Shown: positions 5,100-55,778 of the stretch, piece by piece | Layout of the letters: each line of letters opens with the position of its first letter | How positions within the stretch are numbered: the stretch's first letter is position 1 | Assembly: GCA_964016885.1 (NCBI GenBank) | Contig: OZ024742.1 | Span: forward strand, 317,130,001-317,194,000 | Reading direction: 5' to 3' | Source: Eledone cirrhosa | Lineage: Eukaryota | DNA length: 64,000 nucleotides | The notes under the pieces: model-generated | Told to the model about the DNA's origin: nothing | Seen by the model: the letters and a program-made list of their open reading frames with translations, nothing else | Database searches by the model: none | Translations under genes and position numbers: made by a program

Positions 5100-5399
5100 T
5101 CTGTTTATATGCCAACACAAGAGCAAAAATGACGTGGTCATTCAATTTACCTTATCCAGCATACAAATAATTCTAGTGAATAGCTTAGAATTTTTACAAA
5201 CCCAAACTTTTAACTGTTTAATAGCACTTTTTTATTTATTTGGGACCTAAGCAACGCAAAAAAGTGATTACAAGCCAGGAACAGAGAAAATAAATGTTTG
5301 TTACACGGTGTTATTTAACCAGACCATATGACTTGTATATATAGTGATTTTGTTCAGTTGAGGATCGACATTGAGCTCTGAGGGTTTCGGCTAGTTATC

Positions 5400-7596: not shown

Positions 7597-7622
7597 AAAG
7601 TGGTTACACAACAGTTACTTCA

Positions 7623-7672
7623 CCATACCGAGAACAATTGTTTCACCTTAGCGGATCCTCACCTCGTAATGG
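7623..7672 (-). ncRNA. Hammerhead-like motif with atypical position 3 (GUGAGGA)
   Basis: Minus strand: ccattacgag-GTGAGGA-tccgctaaggt-GAAA-caattg-TT-ctcggtatgg. Confidence 0.55.
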
Positions 7673-10003
7673 ACATGGTTATACAAAACAGGAAGGAGAA
7701 CCGCACAAACGCGCATGCGCAGAAACGATCACTTCACACAGGCAATACTAAATTGCATGCGAGAGGTGTAAGTGAGATAACTGCGAAAGTCCGAAAGTTT
7801 CTGGTTGATAAGAAAATTAGCATGTTGTTGCAATTCAATCCGGAGCTTTGTAGTTTTGTAAGAGGTGTTTCCAGACGTGTGGACAACGTGTGAAGAATTC
7901 ATAACTCGTGTTTAGGCAATCACTATTGCGTAATATCTTTAGAATATTTATTCGTTCATCAATACATAGTCCACACGACGGATTGCCCCTTGCGTATGTC
8001 TTGGACTTAGTGATGGCTTTCCATTGAATGGAGTAGTCTATACTTGAGTCCTTGAGGGACCATACGTGGCCCGCGAGTTTCGTGGATGAACGTCTGTCCG
8101 GATAAAGGTCGATTGGTGGTTCAGGAAGCGTTCCTTAAATCGGCCATCCGCCATACCCACATAGCATTTGACCTCCTGTGGTTGATTTGTTCGGTTGTAA
8201 GTGACCACAGCTTCATAAACTGCAGCGGGTGTTTTGCATTGCTGTTGAAGGGGACAAGCTTCGGCTTACGGCAAGAGCACTCTGGTGGGGTGTTGCTCTT
8301 AGGTCTGTTGGTGATGTGGGCCTTCATGTTCTTAGGGCAGGAGTATCCTAGTTTTACTTTGTGTCGGTTAAAGATGGAGTGGTATTTATGACCTATGAGA
8401 AAGTGTCTATCTAAGAGGGCTAGACATTTTTTGCCTACATTGGTTTTAACGTTGAGTGAGAAGGCAGGAGAGAATCAGATAGTTTGTCTATTGTTACGCT
8501 TTCTTTTCTTATTGCTGTTGTTGTTAGTGCGAGAGTAAGTGATATGTTGCGAGAAGCCGCTTTTAGCTAACGCCGTGTTATAGTAGGTTGTCAAAGATAG
8601 TCGCTGTGTGAAGTTCACACAGTTTGACATTATTGATTTTTACTCATCGATCTCAGAGAACCTGTTAAACAAAGCGTTGAACTTTGCTACCACTTACACT
8701 ACCGTCGATGGTTTAGACAGGGAAATCATCGCTCAGTGCCGGAAAACCCTCCTTTTCAACAACGGAGTAGCCTGGGCAAAGAAGTCAACAACTTGAGACC
8801 TATTCGACTTCTCCATGGGATCGTTTGATAGTGATGACGTATGCGACTTGGTTGGCCTATTTATTTTAGACATATTACGTGTTAGATTCCCGGACTTCCA
8901 CACGGAAATATACCGTGACGATGGACTGACCTTATCGAGCCATAAAAGTGATCACGACCTCGACCCGTTTAAAAAAGACTTAGCTTCTACCTTCAATGAA
9001 TTAGGACTTATGATAACAGTAGCTACCAACCTCTCTAACGTAGATTAGACATTAATTTAGACGTTCGCACACACACCTACAGACCCTTCCATAAACTAAA
9101 CGAAAAACTCAATTACATTCACAAGGACTCATGCCACCCTCAAACTGTTTTTAGAAACTTCGTAAATAATATCAGTACTAGAATCTCAAACCTCTCCTCT
9201 AATAAGGCTATCTTTGACAGGGCGGCACCCTACTATAACACGGCGTTAGCTAACAGCGGCTTCTCGCAACCTATCACTTACCCTCCCACTAACAACGACA
9301 GCAATAAGAAAAGAAAGCGTAACAATAGACAAACTATCTGGTTCTCTCCTCCCTTCTCACTCAACGTTAAAACCAATGTAGGCAAAATATTTCTAGCCGT
9401 CTTAGATAGACACTTTCCCATAGGTCATAAATACCACTTCATGTTTTATGTTGATAGAGAAAAAAGAAACCAGAACTTTGTCATCCCAACCAATTGGAGG
9501 TCAAATCCTATGTGGGTATGGCGGAGGGCCAATTTAAGGAACGCTTCCATAACCACCAATCGACCTTTAGGTACCCGAACAGACGTTCATCCACGAAACT
9601 CTCGAGCCACGTATGGTCCCTCAAGGACTCAAGTATAGACTACTCCATTCAATGGAAAGCCATCACCAAGTCCAAGCCATACGCAAGGGGCAATCCGTCG
9701 TGTGGACTATGTATTTATGAACGAATAAATATTCTAAAGAGAGTACGCAATAGTGATTGCTTAAACACGAGAAATGGATTCGTTAAACGTTGTCCACACG
9801 TCTGGGAACACCTCTTACATAACTACAAAGCTCCGGATTGAATTGCAACAACAACCTAATTTTCTTATAAACCAGAAACTTTCGGACTTTCGCAGTTATC
9901 TCCCTAACACCTCTCGCACGCAATTTAGTATTGCCTGTGTGAAGTGTTCGTTTCTGCGCGTGCGCGTTCGTACGGTTGTCCTTTCTGTTCCGTATAACCA
10001 TGT

Positions 10004-10053
10004 CCATTACGAGATGAGGATCCGCTAAGGCGAAACAATTGTTCTCGGTATGG
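10004..10053 (+). ncRNA. Hammerhead-like motif with atypical position 3 (AUGAGGA)
   Basis: ccattacgag-ATGAGGA-tccgctaaggc-GAAA-caattg-TT-ctcggtatgg; palindromic stem III CAATTG; ~100-170 nt downstream of the PLE stop. Confidence 0.6.
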
Positions 10054-10142
10054 TGAACTAACTGTTGTGTAACCACTTCTACCTAACTCGTCCCATGGAC
10101 TGAGTGCTCTACCACTACGGATATTACCTTCCAGTGTTCTAC

Positions 10143-12018: not shown

Positions 12019-12069
<51 letters not shown>

Positions 12070-12148
12070 CGAAGGAAATGTGGTAAGGAACCTGGTGGAC
12101 CATAACGCACCAAAGTACTCAATACTTAGGGTAGTACAGTGGGTAATA

Positions 12149-12260
12149 GGAACAAGTAAGACCCCGACGGCTGAGCTCAAGCCGTTTCGACGGCTAATTC
12201 TGGACTGAATGAAAATTTATTCTGGTATTTAAATAGCCGAGCTTATCAAGGGGTAATTCC
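12149..12260 (-). ncRNA. Type I hammerhead ribozyme, U3-A8 core variant, long stem II
   Basis: Minus strand: ggaatt-acccc-TTGATAA-gct-cggcta-ttt..(30 nt)..gaat-tagccg-tc-GAAA-cggct-tgagctc-agccg-TC-ggggt-cttacttg-ttcc. Predicted GUC cleavage between 12166 and 12165. Confidence 0.85.
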
Positions 12261-13443
12261 ATATATGGTCAAAGAGATAATCACCAGGATTGGTCACATC
12301 ACAAGTTAGTAGTAAATCTGTGATGGCAAATTGGTAGGGGAAGGGGTAGCTGAACCTGCCGGTAGAAGAAAAAGGGAGAGGGGGAGAAGTAGACCCATTC
12401 ATGCGTTGGTAGTGCCGGCTACAGCTGGGTGTGGGGTCAAAGAAGATACTGGGGAGGGGGAGGGGGAGGAAGTTGAAACGGTAAGTAGAACAATGAGGGT
12501 AAAACTATAAAAAGTACTGAGAGAGAAAAAAAAAAAAAAATAAGCAAAGTCTGGTTACTAAGACTTAAGTCTCTCGCTATTGCTAGGCTAAAGAAATACA
12601 TAAATAAATAAATAAATAAATAAGTGAATAAAAGAATGGATAAATAAATTTAAAAAAAATATATTTATAATGAAGAATAAAAAATAAATAAAAATAAACT
12701 AGGTGGGACGGAAATAAAGGGACCCTTATACGAGGTATAAGTGCGTGTATCGTACGGTCACGGGTCAACAAAGGGGGGGGGGGGGGGGAATACTAAAGAG
12801 ACTACCACGAAATAATAAAGGTTTCTACCCCAATCACAGGGCCAGCAACCACCCAGAGCAAGAAAGTAAACTAGTACGAGAATATCATTCAGGGTCCCGC
12901 AAAAAAATACTAGTGCTAACTCTAAGGGTACCGCCACGAAACAAAAAGTCTTATACAAGCTACAAGAAAGATCGTACGAAGTAAAAGTAAAGAACGGAAA
13001 ATTAATACAGAAACACCCCCCCCCCTCCCCCCCAAAAAAAAGAAAAAGGGAAAAGAGGAAAGAAATACTGGATAAACGAGAAATTAAAGCAAAGATGCCG
13101 CTAAGAAATATAGAAGGCACGAAAAAAAGGGACAGCGGTCGGAGAAGGGGGCAAGTATCCGAGGTCTAACACCTCTGCTATAAAAAGCGGAGTCAGCCAA
13201 ATCTATCATAGAATAGGGGAGGGGGGGGGGGGGGTGCTGAAGCTACAAGGGACCGAGGGGCTACCTCGGGTGGGCGAGAAAAAGACGACGACAAAGAAAG
13301 GGAACTGGGGTAGAGGGACTAGCGAGGGATGGCGGGAAGGAGGAAATATAGAGGAAGCGATAAAAAAAGTAAAAGAAGATCTTACCCTCCATTGGCAAGC
13401 AGGGGTTACCCCTTACAAAATAGGCAAGTGGAGTGTTATAGAC

Positions 13444-15614
13444 CTAGTCTACCCCCCCCCCTCCCCGCGGGTCATTATGGGGTTTGAGGGCGAGGTAAGT
13501 CCTACGTAATCGGTGTTTACATGCAGTAACCAGTTCATCTTTCTTGTTTAGGAGTTGGTCCGTCGAAAACAGCATTTGTAAAGTTTCCTCCGAGCATAAA
13601 TTGCACGGACGGCGTCCTCCCGTGTAAGAGTTGGCTCTGGACAGTAATTTCCAAGTGAGATCATAGTTGATGTTGTTGTCCTTGAGGTCCCATATGTGGC
13701 CCGAAAGTGTAGTGGCGTGACGCCGGGCCGGGTTTCGGAAGGTATGTCTGTGTTGGTATAGCCGGGCCTTGAAGGCACATGCGGTTAATCCTATATAAGC
13801 TTTGTTGGAGGTGTCCGTGCTCACGTTGCACTGGTAGATCACATTACGGTCTCTGCATCTGTTGTCGAGGGGGAAACTGGATCCATCAGGACAGTTGCAC
13901 CTCCTGGTCGGCTCTCCACTGCTATTTAGGTTGTTTCTTCCATCGAGGTTGAGTTTTTTGTTGTTGGAGGAGACGATGTTTTGTGCGAAGTTAGGTGTAG
14001 TGCTGTAAGAGAGTTTGATGGTATTTTTGTTAATTATGTTGTGGTAGCGGTGTTGTGGTGGGAAGTGTTTTTCAATGAGCCTGAAGAAAATTTTCCCGAT
14101 GGGAGTTGTCACCTCTGCGTTGTGGGGAGGATTGAACCATGTTACATTGCGTGAGCAGCGGTGTCGCCTGCTGGTTCCGCTAATGGGAGCTGGACAGTAG
14201 GATATTTCCTCCTGGAAGCCACTCCGCTTGAGGGCCTGGTTGTAGTAAGGCGCATGTTCATCGAATATCTTCTCATTGGCTGACAAACGGGATATGCGGA
14301 GGGAGATGTTTTTGACCAGGTTGTTGGTGATGTTCCTAGGATGGTTAGATCGGCGGTGGATGTAGTGAAGGTTGTCTTTGGGTTTCCTGTATGGGTAGTA
14401 CAGGTCATTATTGAGATCGAGGGTAACGTCCAGGAAATAAACTCGGGTCAGGGACGTTTGTAGGGTTATTTTAAATCCCCAGTCGCGGAAGAAGCTGATT
14501 AATTGTTTACGGACCCGATCTGTACTACTGGGGTTGTACCCTTTAAGGTAAGGAGCCCATCATCACGGTACAATCCACCACCGAAAGCAGGAAACATATC
14601 GGTGACTTTGGTTATAAGGAATAATCCTATAAGATATGTGACCTCCGCCGAATCCGTAGCGCCCATGCTGACGTCGAAGGGTGAGTCGGGAGCTCTTTTT
14701 ATCCATTTGGAGTTGTCAAAGAGTAAGACTGTCTTCCTGGCGTGGAGGATGATTTTTCTTTCCTGGTCGGTGATGGGCACGAGTGCTTCGGCGAAGTCCA
14801 AGGCGGCAGTAAGTAGCAGTAAGGTGATAGAAGCATAGTAGCTCTCTATGTCGAACTGGATAAATTTAGTGTCTCGTTTATCCTCCATATTGCTGAACCA
14901 TGAGATAACTTCCTGGGTGTTGATCCATAGGCTAAGTCGGGCGTGTTGCTTGACTTTTGGTATCACGCGGTCTAGGATTTTTTTTGCTGATTCTCCCTAT
15001 GTCGGACTTCGTTGGGTTTATAAGCCTGATAGATGGTTTACGGTCGAAATCGGATTTGTGGTCCTTCAGTGTGAAGTAGGGTGTCCGTGGGTCTAGGGGT
15101 TCGGTGCGGTCGGCGACCCCGAGGCTGGAGGTAATTTGTTGTCCATCTCGATTAATGTCCTCGATGCATGACTGGTTAGCCTTTTTATAGGTGGAGTTTA
15201 GGCTGCTCCTGATCAGTGTGTGGTATCTGTCAGGGTTGACAAAGTATAGGTTCCCAGTTTTATCCGAATGCACCATGATGTCATTGGTGTTATCATACTC
15301 TGTTAAGTTGCTACGGAGGTTTTGTAGGAATCGGTTGTGTCTGGGTTTGAATTTAAGGTTCTTGACCAGTTGGAAGAGGTCATTCTCGAAGGGTGAGAGC
15401 AAAGGGTTAGGGAGGGGGAAGATTTGTAGGTAATAAATCCGAATCTCTCCTTGGTACCGAAGTCCTGATTGTCGCAAAATCTGTCGTAGAAAAAAGTTCT
15501 CCATCTAAGTCTTTTCGCAAATAGATCGATTTTTTGCGTGAGCATCCGAAGGTAAAGTTTTTTCGGTGGGATTGGGATGTTCTTGCTAGATAAGTCGATG
15601 TTGTGTATTCGCAT
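13444..15614 (-). pseudogene. PLE RT/GIY-YIG polyprotein, ~3 frameshifts (near 15415, 14980 and 14530)
   Basis: MRIHNIDLSSKNIPIP..RLRWRTFFY; SDKTGNLY; FTLKDHK..RLINPTKSDIGRISK; FDIESYYASI; FDVSMGATDSAEV; GLYRDDGL; NVIYQC..AYIGLT..FKARLYQH; CNLCSEE..LNKKDELVTACKH. Confidence 0.92.
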
Positions 15615-15787
15615 GGTGCGGGTGAAAGAAATTGAGCTTAGCGGAAAAGTCTGGATACGGCGTGGTAAGGTCGGAAAGTGCTCTACTACGGGGATAGGAG
15701 CTAGATAACGAAGGAAATGTGGTAAGGAACCAGGTGGACCATAACGCACCAAAGTACTCAATACTTAGGGTAGTACAGTGGGTAATA

Positions 15788-15899
15788 GGAACAAGTAAGA
15801 CCCCGACGGCTGAGCTCAAGCCGTTTCGACGGCTAATTCTAGACTGAATGAAAATTTATTCTGGTATTTAAATAGCCGAGCTTATCAAGGGGTAATTCC
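15788..15899 (-). ncRNA. Second copy of the U3-A8 long-stem-II hammerhead (upstream pLTR)
   Basis: Same sequence as 12149-12260 apart from one loop substitution; lies ~190 nt upstream of the ORF ATG at 15614. Confidence 0.85.
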
Positions 15900-18800
15900 A
15901 TATATTGTCAAAGAGATAATCACCAGGATTGGTCACATCACAAGTTAGTAGTAAATCTGTGATGGCAAATTGGTAGGGGAAGGGGTAGCTGAACCTGCCG
16001 GTAGGAGAAAAAGGGAGAGGGGGTGGAGTAGACCCATTCATGCGTTGGTAGTGCCGGCTACAGCTGGGTGTGGGGTCAAAGAAGATACTGGGGAGGGGAG
16101 GAAGTCGAAACGGTAAGTATAACAATGAGGGTAAAACTATAAAAAGTACTGAGAGAGAAAAAAAAAAAAAAAAAACAAAGTCTGGTTACTAAGACTTAAG
16201 TCTCTCGCTATTGCTAGGCTAAAGAAATACATAAATACATAAATAAATAAATAAATAAATAAGTGAATAAAAGAATGGATAAATAAATTTAAAAAAAATA
16301 TATATATATAATGAAGAATAAAAAATAAATAAAAATAAACTAGGTGGGACGGAAATAAAGGGACCCTTATACGAGGTATAAGTGCGTGTATCGTACCGTC
16401 ACGGGTCAACAAAGGGGGGGGGGGGGCAAAATACTAAAGAGACTACCACGAAATAATAAAGGTTTCTACCCCAATCACAGGGCCAGCAACCACCCAGAGC
16501 AAGAAAGTAAACTAGTACGAGAATATCATTCAGGGTCCCGCAAAAAAATACTCGTGTTAACTGTAAGGGTACCGCCACGAAACAAAAAGTCTTATACAAG
16601 CTACATGAAAGATCGTACGAAGTAAAAGTAAAGAACGGAAAATTAATACAGAAACACCCCCACCCCACCCCCACCCCAAAAAAAGAAAAAGGGAAAAGAG
16701 GAAAGAAATACTGGATAAACGAGAAATTAAAGCAAAGATGCCACTAAGAAACATAGAAGGCACGGAAAAAAGGGACAGCGGTCGGAGAAGGGGGCAAGTA
16801 TCCGAGGTCTAACACCTCTGCTATAAAAAGCGGAGTCAGCCAAATCTATCATAGAATAGGGGAGGGGGGTGCTGAAGCTACAAGAGACCGAGGGGCTACC
16901 TCGGCTGGGCGAGAAAAAGACGACGACAAAGAAAGGGAACTGGGGTAGAAGGACTAGGGAGGGATGGGGGGAAGGAGGGAATATAGAGGAAGCGATAAAA
17001 AAAGTAAAAGAAGATCTTACGTCTCCATTGGCAAGCAGGGGTAACCCCTTACAAAATAGGCAAGTGGGGTGTTATAGCCTTAGTCTACCCCCCCCCCCCC
17101 CGGGTCATTATAGGGTTTGAGGGCGAGGTAAGTCCTACGTAATCGGTGTTTACATGCAGTAACCAGTTCATCTTTCTTGTTTAGGAGTTGGTCCGTCGAA
17201 AACAGCATTTGTAAAGTTTCCTCCGAGCATAAATTGCACGGACGGCGTCCTCCCGTGTAAGAGTTGGCTCTGGACAGTAATTTCCAAGTGAGATCATAGT
17301 TGATGTTGTTGTCCTTATATATAAAAATTTCAGGTTAACAATAATGTTGTGATAATATATCGTCACGTTAGAGATGAACAGCGTACGTGTAGGTTTGCTC
17401 AACGAGTATAAATTATATTCCGGAGAAATGTAGAAAAGATGAATATAAAGTAGCGGCTGCCCCCCCATATTCCCACGGACAGGAATTGTGTAAATTGTGT
17501 TATATAGAATTATTTTGTATTATGAAGTCAAAAAATATTTTATTAAATAACAGAATAGAGCGATCGTTATACTGTAACCATCGCTTGAAATCTACATTTT
17601 CATATTACAAACACTACCAGGATTGAACGCCTGTCTCCATCTCCGTTTGATTGTCAAAATACATATTAACATTCTCTATTAGTCTTAATTCTATCAACTC
17701 TTCTATTCTTTACCATTTAATATAAACTGCTATAGATAAAATGAGATTTCTTAATTCAATTCCCTAATGCATATACCAGCAGGCTACCAGCATTGTTGTT
17801 ATTCAGTAGCAGTGAAAATCTCCCTCTTCCTTAATTGACACTTTATAATTAAAACTACTACACCAAACGACCAGCCTTGTCCATTGTTCAATTGGTCAAG
17901 TATAGATTAAAGTAGGCACTCCCAAAAATTCTTATTTAGATAAAATAAACCATATACTCATTGTATTCTCATTAGAAACCCTTTATATACTTGTTTACCA
18001 GTAAATAGAATTGCCATCTGTCATATACTATCCCCTCTCTTCTTCCTTTATTACAACTAATATAAATACTTCAATTTTTCTTATTCTTTCCAATTTATCC
18101 AATATCTCTGATTATACATTTGCTATCGAATACTTGCTAGCATTATATGATTACGCAAGCATTATATGATTACAGAAACATATGTTTTTTTAAAAAAAGC
18201 ACTTTCATTTTATATTCATCTTTTCTATATATATATATATATATATACGCTCAAACGAACACACACACATATATATATATACGCTGAAACGAACACATAT
18301 ATATATATATATATATATATTTACATATAAACATGCAAAGATACACATAAATGTATGTGTGTAATATATTATAGGCTTTTTGTTGGCAAATAGAAGCTGC
18401 TCAAAACATGATATAGAATTCAATCTTATAAAAATCAATTGATGATTCACTTCATTCAATGAGCATGCACACATCTACAAGCAATAGTTGAGCAATGAAA
18501 TGATGTATTGATAGGGAACCAACTAGGTAAATTCTCATTGTTCAATGCTGGCCAGATGATATAGTATATAGCACAATAATGATATACATTTTGCTAGCTA
18601 TTCTACTATATCGTATGGGAAATCAGCAGGGGCATAACTATCACGTGGTCCTTAACATTTGATATCTGTTGTCATGTAGTTTTGGCCATATCGAATCTTT
18701 CGAGGAGAAATTGTCTCCGATACCAATAACAAATGCACGATATCTTTGAGTGTTTTATCTGATAGCTAGCGGTTAGATAGCCTACAATTTCGAACTCTAT

Positions 18801-23893: not shown

Positions 23894-23980
<87 letters not shown>

Positions 23981-23982
<2 letters not shown>

Positions 23983-24037
23983 AACCAGTAAGACCCCGAC
24001 AGCTGAGCTCAAGCCGTTTCGACGGCTAATTCTGGAC
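23981..24037 (-). mobile_element. Isolated ~57-bp piece of the 12-17 kb PLE family pLTR (3' half of the hammerhead) inside (TA)n
   Basis: ggaaccagtaagaccccgacagctgagctcaagccgtttcgacggctaattctggac matches 12149-12205. Confidence 0.9.
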
Positions 24038-30363: not shown

Positions 30364-30524
30364 CTGTTGCAGTGTATTCGTTTATCCATAAGGACATTAC
30401 AAATCTGAAGAGAATAAGCAATTTGATTTCCGGGATATGTGTGGGGTAAGTGGAGGAAATGGTATGTTTGGAGGATAATGGGGGAAAGATACAGAGTGAT
30501 TATTGGGGGTGGGGTTCGGTACAA

Positions 30525-31185
30525 CACATAACTTCGCATAAAACATCGTCTCTACCAACATAACTAAATTCAATAGAACACACACAGATCAAGGTATCAA
30601 CCTAACCAGGCAATGAAACTGCACCGACCTAAATAATTGCCCACTTCACACCAAATGCTTAAAAGGAATCTGGTATATAAATTCAACGTAATAACACCAA
30701 TCTTACAATGCCTACGCGAGGCTAGTTGCTCGCGAATTTAATACAAGATTCTACCAACACAGCTATAGAAGCCCGGACGGCAGAAAGGCTACTACAATAT
30801 CGAGACACGCATGGAAGCTCAGCAATAGGAATAAGATCTTCAAACTGCACTGGAGTCTCTTAATAAAGGCCAAACCAGATGCCGGGAGCCGTATCCCGTG
30901 TAACCCATGCTCGGAGGAGACCCTAAACATTTTGTTTGCCAAGGAACAATTGCTCAACAAGAAGTGCGAACTCGCCACTTCCTGAATATACAGCCCCCCT
31001 CCACCAATAATTCGCTCTGTAACATTTTCCCATCCTCCCACTACACTCTTTTCTCCACTTATCCCACACATCCTGGTCTCTGATGAAAGAACGCTTGGAC
31101 ATACCTGAAAACAAAAAATTAATTAAGTTATTATCCACTCGTTGTTTAACCTGCGTGAGCTCAGCGCTCGGGCAGTGCCTTTTTT
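30525..31185 (+). mobile_element. Degenerate PLE remnant (GIY-YIG region plus pLTR), related to the 12-17 kb family
   Basis: NFA*NIVSTN..TRQ*NCTDLNNCPLHTKC..RNLVY..FNTRFYQH..ATTISRHAWKL..PCNPCSEETLNILFAKEQLLNKKCELATS* aligns with ORF 13444-14286. Confidence 0.85.
31076..31173 (+). ncRNA. Degenerate long-stem-II hammerhead homologous to 12149-12260 but with a canonical C3-G8 core
   Basis: gtct-CTGATGA-aagaacgcttgg-acatacctgaa...-tccactcgttgtt-(taac; GAAA lost)-ctgcg-tgagctca-gcgc-TC-gggc; same TGAGCTCA stem III palindrome. Confidence 0.6.
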
Positions 31186-47375: not shown

Positions 47376-47624
47376 TTCACACACACACGCACACATGTCT
47401 ATATATATATATATTTCGTTTCTGAATTTGTTTAGCAAGATTCTTTATCTGAAAACGTGTGTTAAAACCGATATTGTTATGCTTTGGGAGGGTCATGTTG
47501 CCAATAAGAAACACACGCACCAGTTGCTTTCACTTCAATTTATTATAATAAATTTATAAATTTAGGAATTTATAAATTTCTGGTTAGTTGGTTGGTTCCA
47601 CAACCAGATAGCTGTTTATATATT

Positions 47625-47667
47625 GTCAAAGTTCTTTCGTCACACATTCTGTGACCTCTTCACTGAC
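47625..47667 (-). ncRNA. Hammerhead copy in the inverted pLTR, C3->G mutated
   Basis: Minus strand: gtca-GTGAAGA-g-gtcaca gaatg tgtgac-GAAA-gaac-TT-tgac. Confidence 0.6.
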
Positions 47668-49164
47668 TGGGGATTCTTTTCTTTGTTTTTGTGCCTCTCC
47701 TTTGTTCTGTCCTACGCCATTTTGTTTAACACAGATAGATGGAACGGGTGGACCAGAGCCATACGGACACCCGAAAACCACGATGAACTGAAGAAAATGA
47801 TTGCACATGCGGTAGGGGCCAGCATAAAACTAACCCTTAAGGAACATATGTTCAAATTTAATGGAAAAACATATGCCCAAGAGGAAGGAGCAGCTATTGG
47901 TGTTAGCATTGCAGGCGACATAGCTAACTTATTCATGGTATGGTGGGACAGTAAACTTAAATTTAAACTTAAAGAACAATTAGAAGACCCCTTAACCCTG
48001 ATAATGTACTCCCGCTACGTTGATGATATAAACATCATAGTTAAGACACCCCCACTAGAGAACAGTCAGAAACTAGAGAAAAATACAATGGAAAGCATCC
48101 AGCAAAGAGCTAACTCCAAGTAAACACCCCAACCATCGATTACCTGTACTAGACACAGAGCTCTGGTTAGATACCATTAATAACAAAAAACAAATCCTCC
48201 ATTCCCATTATGCCAAACCCATGACTTCCAAACATCTGATCCACCGAAACTCAGCTGTTTCGGACCACACCAAAATCAACATACTGATTGCGGATTTGGT
48301 ACGGGTGATGAGAAACGTGTCCCGCATGTGCAACCCCGAAGAACTAGAGAGACACATACAACACTTCATCCACCGTATGCAGTTCTCTGGTTACAATCAG
48401 AGAGATAAAATCAGAGTGTAATGTTCATCGATACAACCCCTAGAGGTGAATTAGCTTACAAATTTAGAAGGGCCCTAGATAAACATAAACTCAATATTAA
48501 GATAGTAGAAAGACCAGGTACCTCTGTAAAAACACTTATTAGCAAGACATACCCTTTTCAAAGACCCTAATGTATAGATAAGAAATGTATAACCTGTAAA
48601 ATAAGCCCCCATATTAACTGTAAAACTAGAAATGTAGTGTATAGCATAAGATGTACTGAAGGACAATGTAGAGACAAAAATATAGTGTACATAGGTGAGA
48701 CAGCTCGTAGTGTAGGGGAACGGATAAATGAACACTGGCGAGACCTTCAAGATAGTAAAGAATCATCAGTACTCTACCAACATGCTAAAATAGAACATAA
48801 GGGTAAATTAGAGAACATAGAAATAAAAATAGAATCTACACACAGAAAAGACGCAATGTTTAGACAAATCACAGAGGCAATAAACATAAAAGAATTACAA
48901 CCAAAATTAAATAGAAAATATGAGTGTAACAGCAACATCACAACTTACAATTAAGGACAAAATGAAAACACACACGCACATAGAACAAACAACCAACTGG
49001 TAACATGTAAATAAACAAATAAATAAACGAATATAAACACACACAGACACCCGGATATGGCGCATGTGCAGACTGAGCACACAACACACACAACACACAC
49101 ACAGAAACAAAATGGCGTAGGACAGAACAAAGGAGAGGCACAAAAACAAAGAAAAGAATCCCCA

Positions 49165-54186: not shown

Positions 54187-54773
54187 ACGTACAGTAGTAT
54201 GTATATATATACATACACACACACATATATATATGCACGTATCGGTTTACCGAACATTTATTATAATGCTCGGTTTGTTTGTAAACAAACAAACAGCCCG
54301 AATTACGCCGTACAGTTTTTAGGCAACTACGTCACCCTTATGTTCAACACTGACAGGGGAACGATGTACTAGTTTCAAGCTTATTAGCTATCGTCAGCAT
54401 CGTATAACTTCCTGCCAGATGGTTGAACGTCTGAAAGTATATACTTTCCTTATGCATATTAACGGCTGAGCAGCCTAATTTGCATATCGAGTGAGTTTAA
54501 TCGGCCGGGCGCACCGAAAACGATACATGAAATAGAATGAAACGAAATTTAATTTCTCACTATTAGTACGGCAGTTACTTAAATGTAAGTATGCATATAT
54601 GTATACGTACATAAATATATATATACATACGTACAGTAGTATGTATATATATATACATACACGCGCACATATATATATGCACGTATCGGTTTACCGAACA
54701 TTTATTATAACGCTCGGTTAACAAACAAACAGCCCGAATTACGCCGTACAGTGTTTAGGCAACCACGTCACCT

Positions 54774-54805: not shown

Positions 54806-54940
54806 TTAGAAAGTGAGGGTTTTTTTTTACAAAATGAAAAATAAACGAGGTGGCCTACACGAGTGAAAGTATAAAGAAAAAGAGATGAAATCGAAAATGC
54901 AACTGGAGTCTTATTTTTAAATATATATATTTATTTGGTT

Positions 54941-54978
54941 CCTTTACCGGTTTCGCAGTTCTTCTGCTTTTCAAAAGG
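54941..54978 (-). ncRNA. Minimal hammerhead ribozyme, U3-A8 variant
   Basis: Minus strand: cctt-TTGAAAA-gcag aagaa ctgc-GAAA-ccgg-TA-aagg; ACCGGT palindrome; GUA site. Confidence 0.75.
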
Positions 54979-55778
54979 TGAGTTGAGATGGAGGGTCTGT
55001 GGTTTTTCTCACAATATATATATATAGGCGATAGGGCGTCGTAATAAGAAGGGCTTAGATATGTGTACCGACCCGATGTGTTCTAAGTTCAAATAACACC
55101 GAGTTCAACTTTGCTTTTCGTTCTTTCGTGGCCGATAAATAAATAATTAGTTCGATTCTTTCTCTGTCTTCTTCTCTGAAGACATGCATTCCGACCTGGA
55201 GAGTGATGGGTTTCGCTAGGAGAAAAATCGTTAGGTTACGCCATGTGTCATGGCGGTGCTCCTATGACTCTATCGGGGGTTACGAGTTCCGTACCTTAGC
55301 CACCACACTGATTGATTAGGTTGACACAAGTTTGATTATATTCCACTCCATTGTCCAATGAAATTGAGATATGTCCCTAATTTATAAAATGATGAGATTT
55401 CCATCTAAGCATTCATAATTTTTTTTTAATTGTTTTCTCTTTTCTTTAAAACAATTTTCGATGTTTGTAGATTCATTACGTAGGCGAAAGTTTGATTGAG
55501 TTCTACACACGAGCTCAAATAAAATAGAATTCTATTTGATAAAGATTTGAAATTTGCCCAAAACATGTAAATTGTTTCAGATTTTCTTGAAATTGTATTT
55601 CTATTTGTTTGAAAGCCGCAACAGTTAACGATATGTTTCTTTTTCTTTCGAAACATTTTATGTAGTTGAGATTGTTTAATTATATTATATATTATATTAT
55701 ATATTATATAGTGACACACTTCTTAACTTCTCTAAATTCTTTGGTTTACTTACTTGAATTACGATCAACTACCCCTCC

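Follow-up and report, generated by a model that had tools for sequence, protein, structure and literature searches.

In the accessible passages of Cervera and de la Pena 2014 (PMC4209133), hammerhead ribozymes are described in both pseudo-LTRs of Penelope-like elements (PLEs), as tandem copies about 3 kb apart, along with U3-A8 hammerheads found by homology to Cercyon PLEs, with about 1,300 matches in S. mansoni. The same passages propose a model of cleavage, ligation and circle formation, report low, dimer-dependent activity of metazoan PLE hammerheads, and describe monomer-active fungal PLE ribozymes in which helix III is long enough to form alone. Cleavage of PLE hammerheads as dimers is also stated, with reference to Lunse et al., in the available part of a review (PMC6765202). 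Several natural U3-A8 hammerhead cores, with earlier in vitro activity cited, appear in the accessible text of Perreault et al. 2011 (PMC3088659). For the Hydra clade, the available portion of Craig et al. 2021 (PMC8557442) contains 26 ribozyme rows in File S2, all of them CUGANGA with short helices II and III, and a string search of that supplement, as accessible, with four probe strings from the ribozyme studied here found none of them. Excerpts of Frangieh et al. 2024 (PMC11167929) report protein-assisted cleavage by an anole PLE, ribozyme mutants of which inserted normally in vitro, two reverse transcriptase (RT) start sites that match DNA ends, and no RNA-seq reads beginning or ending at the cut site. 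A circular template has been shown for short retrozymes (PMC7229834, in the passages available), and further context is found in the accessible part of a preprint (bioRxiv 10.64898/2026.07.22.740005). The U3-A8 variant in PLEs, tandem ribozymes and the excision or circle model are therefore already published in PMC4209133 and PMC3088659; the U3-A8 pseudo-LTR hammerhead with release of a unit RNA, as described in the initial annotation, is thus not supported as new, since PMC4209133 has the variant, the spacing and the model.

The stretch of Eledone cirrhosa DNA analysed here (64,000 nucleotides, hereafter the window) carries on its minus strand a U3-A8 type I hammerhead with the core UUGAUAA at 15888-15882 (U3 15888, A8 15883), present in two copies:

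15788..15899, minus strand: upstream copy of the type I hammerhead, with 15899/15788 closing its distal helix I
12149..12260, minus strand: type I hammerhead, downstream copy (U3 12249, A8 12244, C17 12166)

In the upstream copy, helix I pairs ACCCC (15893-15889) with GGGGU (15804-15800) and continues, beyond an internal loop, with a distal part made of GGAAU (15899-15895) and GUUCC (15792-15788). Helix II consists of G10.1-C11.1 (15881/15828), a 2x1 internal loop and 6 bp (15878-15873/15835-15830) closed by a 37-nt AU-rich loop, and helix III of CGGCU/AGCCG around UGAGCUC (15823-15819/15811-15807, 5 bp plus A15.1-U16.1), so that helices II and III are built from the same CGGCU/AGCCG arms. The GAAA lies at 15827-15824 (G12 at 15827) and the GUC has its C17 at 15805. 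All the parts of a type I hammerhead fold are present, namely three helices (helix I of 5+5 bp, helix II of 1+6 bp), a Watson-Crick 3-8 pair, GAAA and GUC. The two copies differ at 1 of 112 nt, in loop II, and their spacing of 3639 nt (U3 at 15888 and 12249) is exactly that given in the initial annotation.

The window was scanned for cores of either type, C3-G8 or U3-A8, requiring at least 5 Watson-Crick pairs for helix I and 4 for helix III; this returned two matches, the 15888 and 12249 copies, and none in any of 200 dinucleotide shuffles. Together with the helix-by-helix parse, this bears out the earlier identification of a UUGAUAA hammerhead in both pseudo-LTR copies. The strict CUGANGA consensus is not matched by this core, so that searches limited to it would indeed miss the motif, as had been claimed; Rfam likewise gave no match at the gathering score in the whole window and none at E<=10 in 15600-16100, and also missed the window's other minimal hammerheads. 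The motif is real, and both its core variant and its kind are already known.

The ribozyme belongs to an element with the following parts:

15702..17316, minus strand: upstream pseudo-LTR, 5'-truncated, with the endonuclease C-terminus, 3' UTR, ribozyme and a 100-nt tail; its 5' junction adjoins a short TA run
12063..13683, minus strand: downstream pseudo-LTR, ending in (TA)n at about 12066
13444..15614, minus strand: RT plus C-terminal GIY-YIG-type ORF of a Hydra-like PLE, with three frameshifts near 15410, 14985 and 14540
12260..13444, minus strand: pyrimidine-rich 3' UTR from the stop codon to the ribozyme, about 1.2 kb and unusually long

The repeat is 1.63 kb long and 95.7% identical between copies (38 substitutions, 32 gap columns), contains the endonuclease end, the long 3' UTR and the ribozyme, and is arranged as one partial unit, truncated at its 5' end, with a complete unit after it and TA runs at both flanks. 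The description of a near-complete PLE bracketed by pseudo-LTRs thus holds in that a PLE ORF lies between two repeats, but the ORF has three frameshifts and the repeat extends over 1.63 kb. The frameshifts are seen from the alignment of homologs (104 full-length proteins found) in four pieces, which by tblastn span residues 8-705. In the contig alignment, other family copies vary by single-base indels at the three sites, so that the breaks would be copy-specific decay or assembly errors. As assembled, the copy at 13444-15614 is unable to encode a full protein, and its RNA would be no more than a passenger. The ATG (15614) follows the cut site at a distance of 190 nt, in agreement with the initial annotation, although this distance is ordinary for the clade; a short upstream ORF begins at 15742.

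The protein motifs are RWR, SDKTG (DKT), YRDDG, YIG and CNLCSEE..LLNK..CKH, with RT preceding the endonuclease (EN). Of the features of an EN+ Penelope-like element, the ORF with RT and GIY-YIG endonuclease and the 1.63-kb partial-tandem pseudo-LTR were found, and an intact ORF was not. Those of the Hydra clade include a C-terminal EN, DKT for DKG, and CxxC plus CxH around a conserved E and N, all found here, as is (TA)n insertion, with (TA)n at the 3' end, a TA run at the 5' junction and contig loose ends in TA. RWR stands where the Hydra clade has RWK (RW[KR] in 89 of 104 homologs), and in the linker the CxC is present while the third Cys of CxCX5C is absent from the 13444-15614 copy. The 3639-nt unit exceeds the length of "generally" less than 3 kb given for the clade because of its 1.2-kb 3' UTR. 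On the basis of its motifs, of TA targeting and of the likeness of the ribozyme of loci L060/L061 to Hydra-1_aMil, the published row of which it matches nearly identically by eye, the element is best called Hydra-like. Assignment to Naiads is ruled out by the C-terminal EN and the DKT motif. Pfam gave no match on the four ORF pieces; a metagenome scan with the C-terminal ORF piece alone confirmed 0 of 199 candidates, and among viral contigs 0 of 29 candidates were confirmed and a 19-nt ribozyme pattern had 0 matches.

Two further pieces of the window are related to the ribozyme:

31066..31185, plus strand: decayed homologous hammerhead, C3-G8 (CUGAUGA), with a long AU-rich loop II and a GAGCUC palindrome, GAAA lost
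23978..24037, minus strand: solo 60-nt family fragment in (TA)n, 3' half only (GAAA, helix III, GUC and the helix I 3' arm)

The motif at 31080 aligns with a local score of 73, against a maximum of 60 in 2000 mononucleotide shuffles, and follows the end of a decayed related ORF at about 30500-30980 (42% identity, stop codons). It has UAAC in place of GAAA and a weak helix I; with GAAA lost, a working C3-G8 ribozyme is ruled out. The covariation of the 3-8 pair that the initial annotation had drawn from it is correct in that the motif is a true homolog with C3-G8, but its broken core makes the support weak. The solo fragment lacks the U3-A8 half. A second, unrelated U3-A8 minimal type I hammerhead lies at 54940-54980 on the minus strand (position 3 at 54974, core UUGAAAA); its helix I has 4 bp, its helix III is palindromic, and the short fragment that holds it has TA runs on either side. 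Three further C3-G8 minimal type I candidates are found on the minus strand at 54397, 47097 and 31594. The window also holds another Hydra-like PLE at 7598-10078, with a 507-nt inverted repeat and two ribozyme copies in which G8 faces A or G at position 3. Pieces of yet another PLE lie at 47566-48954 on the plus strand (RVT_1 and GIY-YIG Pfam matches), and a PLE-like ORF piece near 1500-2008.

The 3-8 pair was followed in 89 related loci, 77 from metagenomes (out of the 80 of 483 most similar to P0001) and 12 from genome contigs, by counting ORF-linked sense-strand hammerheads with positions 3 and 8 left free. This gave 65 matches in 55 of the 89 loci, forming 40 motif families, of which 38 are C3-G8 and two U3-A8 (L024 and L056), with none mismatched, and 0 matches in 284,575 shuffled nt. 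Many of the 34 loci without a match have short flanks, and a relaxed look at 13 of them found C3-G8 motifs in four; a G3-C8 pattern match in L085, with a 54-nt span, came from the same relaxed look and was not credited. Outside the 40-family count, L032 has one minus-strand copy with U3-G8. That all 40 motif families keep positions 3 and 8 as a Watson-Crick pair argues for selection acting on the catalytic core, and covariation as such, 38 families against two, is in this way borne out by the relatives. In a quick tree of 84 rows, built of fetched homologs only with no outgroup or published reference, U3-A8 needs at least two changes; the tree pairs the window family with L024 (SH-aLRT 85, long branch), as a shared origin of U3-A8 in the two would predict, but L024 ranks 9-71 in tblastn of the four ORF pieces. 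As judged from these sequences, U3-A8 is an uncommon, recurrent and compensatory state in the clade.

Copies of the window family were sought in contigs from three public runs of one study, representing at most two samples and possibly the source of the window itself. No change at position 3 or 8 is present among the 40 differences from the window that were listed (547 further rows exist), and many of those 40 represent nearly all depth disagreeing with the window, which is an indirect indication that U3 and A8 are conserved across family copies. As to other loci, L010 has on its minus strand, at 5268 and 2765, identical G3-C8 hammerheads 2503 nt apart, one on either side of a full-length Hydra-like ORF (5070-2968). 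Natural PLE ribozymes with G3-C8 may be less common than those with U3-A8; one paper listed for the term G3-C8 is PMC3884650. The contigs of loci L078-L089, which carry Hydra-like PLEs, are deposited as bacterial genomes or MAGs and are probably host DNA in the bins.

What sets the window ribozyme apart from these relatives is its size. The span from A9 to G12 is 54 nt, against 10-31 nt in the 40 relative motif families, and that from A15.1 to U16.1 is 17 nt, against 7-8 nt. About 1260 nt separate the ORF end from the core, a distance that in the relatives is 69-521 nt in 47 of 48 matches and 1190 in one. That from the cut site to where the ORF match starts, about 200 nt, is ordinary, being 90-203 nt in 22 matches. 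A blastn search of the 3' UTR and ribozyme against the 89 related loci gave no match, and the best protein identity among these loci is 42%; since they include no close family relative, covariation support for the enlarged arms comes from the decayed 31080 copy alone. The enlarged, arm-duplicated build, as modelled, is the sole part that was not found in print or in the 40 relatives. It is undescribed in the literature searched, in which subscription papers were thinly covered, and the catalogue of Lunse et al. and the supplement of PMC4209133 may show similar forms.

Two segments take part in its predicted folding:

15806..15824, minus strand: near-palindromic helix III segment, predicted at -30.7 kcal/mol as a homodimer versus -7.1 kcal/mol as a hairpin
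15819..15834, minus strand: competing 6-bp hairpin in which the 3' arm of helix II pairs with the 5' arm of helix III, and which in the monomer model would remove G12-A15.1 from the core (pair probability 0.59-0.65)

In the monomer model the minimum free energy (MFE) structure, at -26.7 kcal/mol, is an arm-swapped fold with GAAA inside the 6-bp hairpin, and the three-stem fold, at -25.1 kcal/mol, lies 1.6 above it with a probability of 0.24-0.27 (strict, 0.001); the folding z-score of the monomer is -1.0. In the dimer model the MFE is -66.7 versus -53.4 kcal/mol and corresponds to a double hammerhead in which helix II is intramolecular and helices I and III are intermolecular, a register that persists in the model with 30, 60 and 100 nt of flank. 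A full ribozyme copy modelled with the solo fragment gives -55.1 versus -41.5 kcal/mol. All these energies are of secondary structure only, ignoring tertiary contacts and the entropy cost of joining two copies.

The DNA ends of the family fall beyond the cut site. Loose ends of family contigs run into TA at 15705, 100 nt past C17, in 295, 330 and 15 contigs of the three runs, and at 15785/12146, 20 nt past C17, in 55+55, 56+58 and 8 contigs, and the window's own copies end at both classes (12066, and the solo fragment at 23978). Among the relatives, 25 matches are followed by (TA)4 within 200 nt, at a distance of 31-117 nt from the cut triplet. Tails of 20 or 100 nt cannot be templated by a linear, doubly cleaved RNA, which ends at C17, but can be by a circle or by tandem RNA left uncut. 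Contig depth was also summed, a measure that is not copy number: it is about 1.2 million in the two bins with the ribozyme 3' part and, leaving out one repeat-skipped bin, about 5-70 thousand elsewhere in the element (runs X1 and X3). This excess and the 60-nt solo fragment suggest that short insertions of the 3' end are very numerous and mostly lack the U3-A8 half. A cluster of opposite-strand contig joints, and the 5' end of the solo fragment, lie at 12202-12206 (about 15841-15845), where loop II is about to give way to the 3' arm of helix II, a position that may mark a common RT stop or an inversion point.

By taking into account the modelled folds and the DNA ends, the locus is probably a usual Hydra-like PLE pseudo-LTR hammerhead in an enlarged U3-A8 form, favoured as a dimer, which would trim tandem transcripts and would not be needed for a direct linear template. 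A lone RNA would mostly misfold, with the CGGCU/AGCCG arms in swapped partners and GAAA hidden, so that a lone ribozyme is predicted to cut poorly. Two copies, at the ends of a read-through transcript or on two transcripts, would pair through the palindromic helix III and a swapped helix I into a double hammerhead, which would cut after C15805/C12166, perhaps aided by the element's protein. To judge by the DNA ends, reverse transcription would begin downstream of the cut site, at a distance of 20 or 100 nt, on a template that would be uncut tandem RNA or a re-ligated circle, with cleavage serving mainly to trim tandem or read-through transcripts. Release of a linear unit RNA by double cleavage is possible, but the family DNA ends lie 20 and 100 nt past the cut site, the ORF of this copy is frameshifted and, in the one PLE tested (PMC11167929), insertion in vitro did not need cleavage. 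The monomer may itself be active, because the three-stem fold is so close to the MFE and the model ignores tertiary contacts; its helix III has a length that would allow it to form alone, like that of the monomer-active fungal PLE ribozymes. The single junction pair of helix II before the internal loop may lower activity.

A less likely but still serious alternative is that each hammerhead copy cuts alone and frees a 3639-nt unit RNA that would be circularised into the replication template. Both hammerheads are intact and nearly identical, helix III is able to form by itself, and the probability of the three-stem fold is 0.24-0.27, but the swapped fold dominates the monomer model. A circular template would suit the partial tandem structure and the DNA ends beyond the cut site, as proposed in PMC4209133 and shown for short retrozymes in PMC7229834 (both as accessible in part), whereas an excised linear monomer would have a 3' end without the 20-100 nt tail; further against an excised template, the available passages of PMC11167929 report normal insertion in vitro by the anole ribozyme mutants and no RNA-seq ends at the cut site. 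At 12434, 12886, 13649, 15975 and 16498 the two repeat copies agree on a letter that nearly all contig depth contradicts, as expected of one source template, but a tandem parent or a subfamily would also explain these five letters. A further reading, which appears unlikely, takes the hammerhead for a relic of weak or no catalytic activity, retained at the 3' end of the element for protein binding or as an RT-start structure. One class of DNA ends, at 15785, lies 3 nt beyond position 15788, where distal helix I ends; PLE hammerheads are weakly active in vitro according to the accessible part of PMC4209133, and Naiads spread without canonical ones; however, neither copy has lost any core position, positions 3 and 8 form a Watson-Crick pair throughout the 40 families, and the loss of GAAA in the 31080 homolog, which would fit a relic, occurs in an element decayed throughout, with stop codons. 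A chance match to the hammerhead pattern is very improbable: the monomer folding energy is ordinary and Rfam is silent, but none of the 200 shuffles matched and the position of the motif relative to the ORF equals that of the ribozymes of the clade.

A stronger and unlikely version of the preferred dimer-favoured reading would make of the build an active switch in place of the passive dimer dependence of PLE hammerheads: the duplicated arms would hold the lone ribozyme off and a 16-bp palindromic duplex with a partner would turn it on, with the very numerous 3'-half fragments in (TA)n acting as trans substrates or decoys. If this were true, the ribozyme would sense tandem or abundant transcripts, and a full copy could cut host transcripts with a 3'-half fragment while being itself left uncut. 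Irrespective of such a switch, Hydra-like PLEs carry U3-A8 cores (two of 40 motif families plus the window family) that CUGANGA descriptors miss, and the prediction of a monomer that is off and a dimer that is on, testable by simple changes of the arms and the palindrome, makes the window hammerhead an unusually clean test case for what PLE hammerheads do.

Among known systems, and within the parts of the sources available, the natural U3-A8 hammerheads of PMC3088659 have the same compensatory core pair, with no PLE link in the accessible passages of that paper. PAc Poseidon (PMC11167929, excerpts) also has its ribozyme near the pLTR/ORF junction and two DNA end classes, which here are at 20 and 100 nt, but it belongs to another clade, is C3-G8, has its cut site inside the ORF and was assayed in vitro, whereas the window ribozyme is known from sequence. 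With the Hydra clade, as described in the available text of PMC8557442, the element shares an RT with C-terminal EN, DKT, CxxC..E..N..CxH, (TA)n flanks and a ribozyme near the 3' end, and differs from it by U3-A8, larger helices, the 3.64-kb unit, RWR for RWK and the missing third Cys. The Schistosoma mansoni Cercyon hammerheads, in the accessible passages of PMC4209133, resemble it in being type I, in both repeats about 3 kb apart, with U3-A8 and G10.1-C11.1, and a palindromic helix III region, proposed action as dimers and the circle model are common to the PLE hammerheads of that paper. The motifs presented there are minimal, with no or a tiny helix III; unlike them, the window hammerhead can be parsed without an extra nucleotide between A9 and G10.1, and has a helix III of 17 nt, a loop II of 37 nt and repeated arms with a competing fold.
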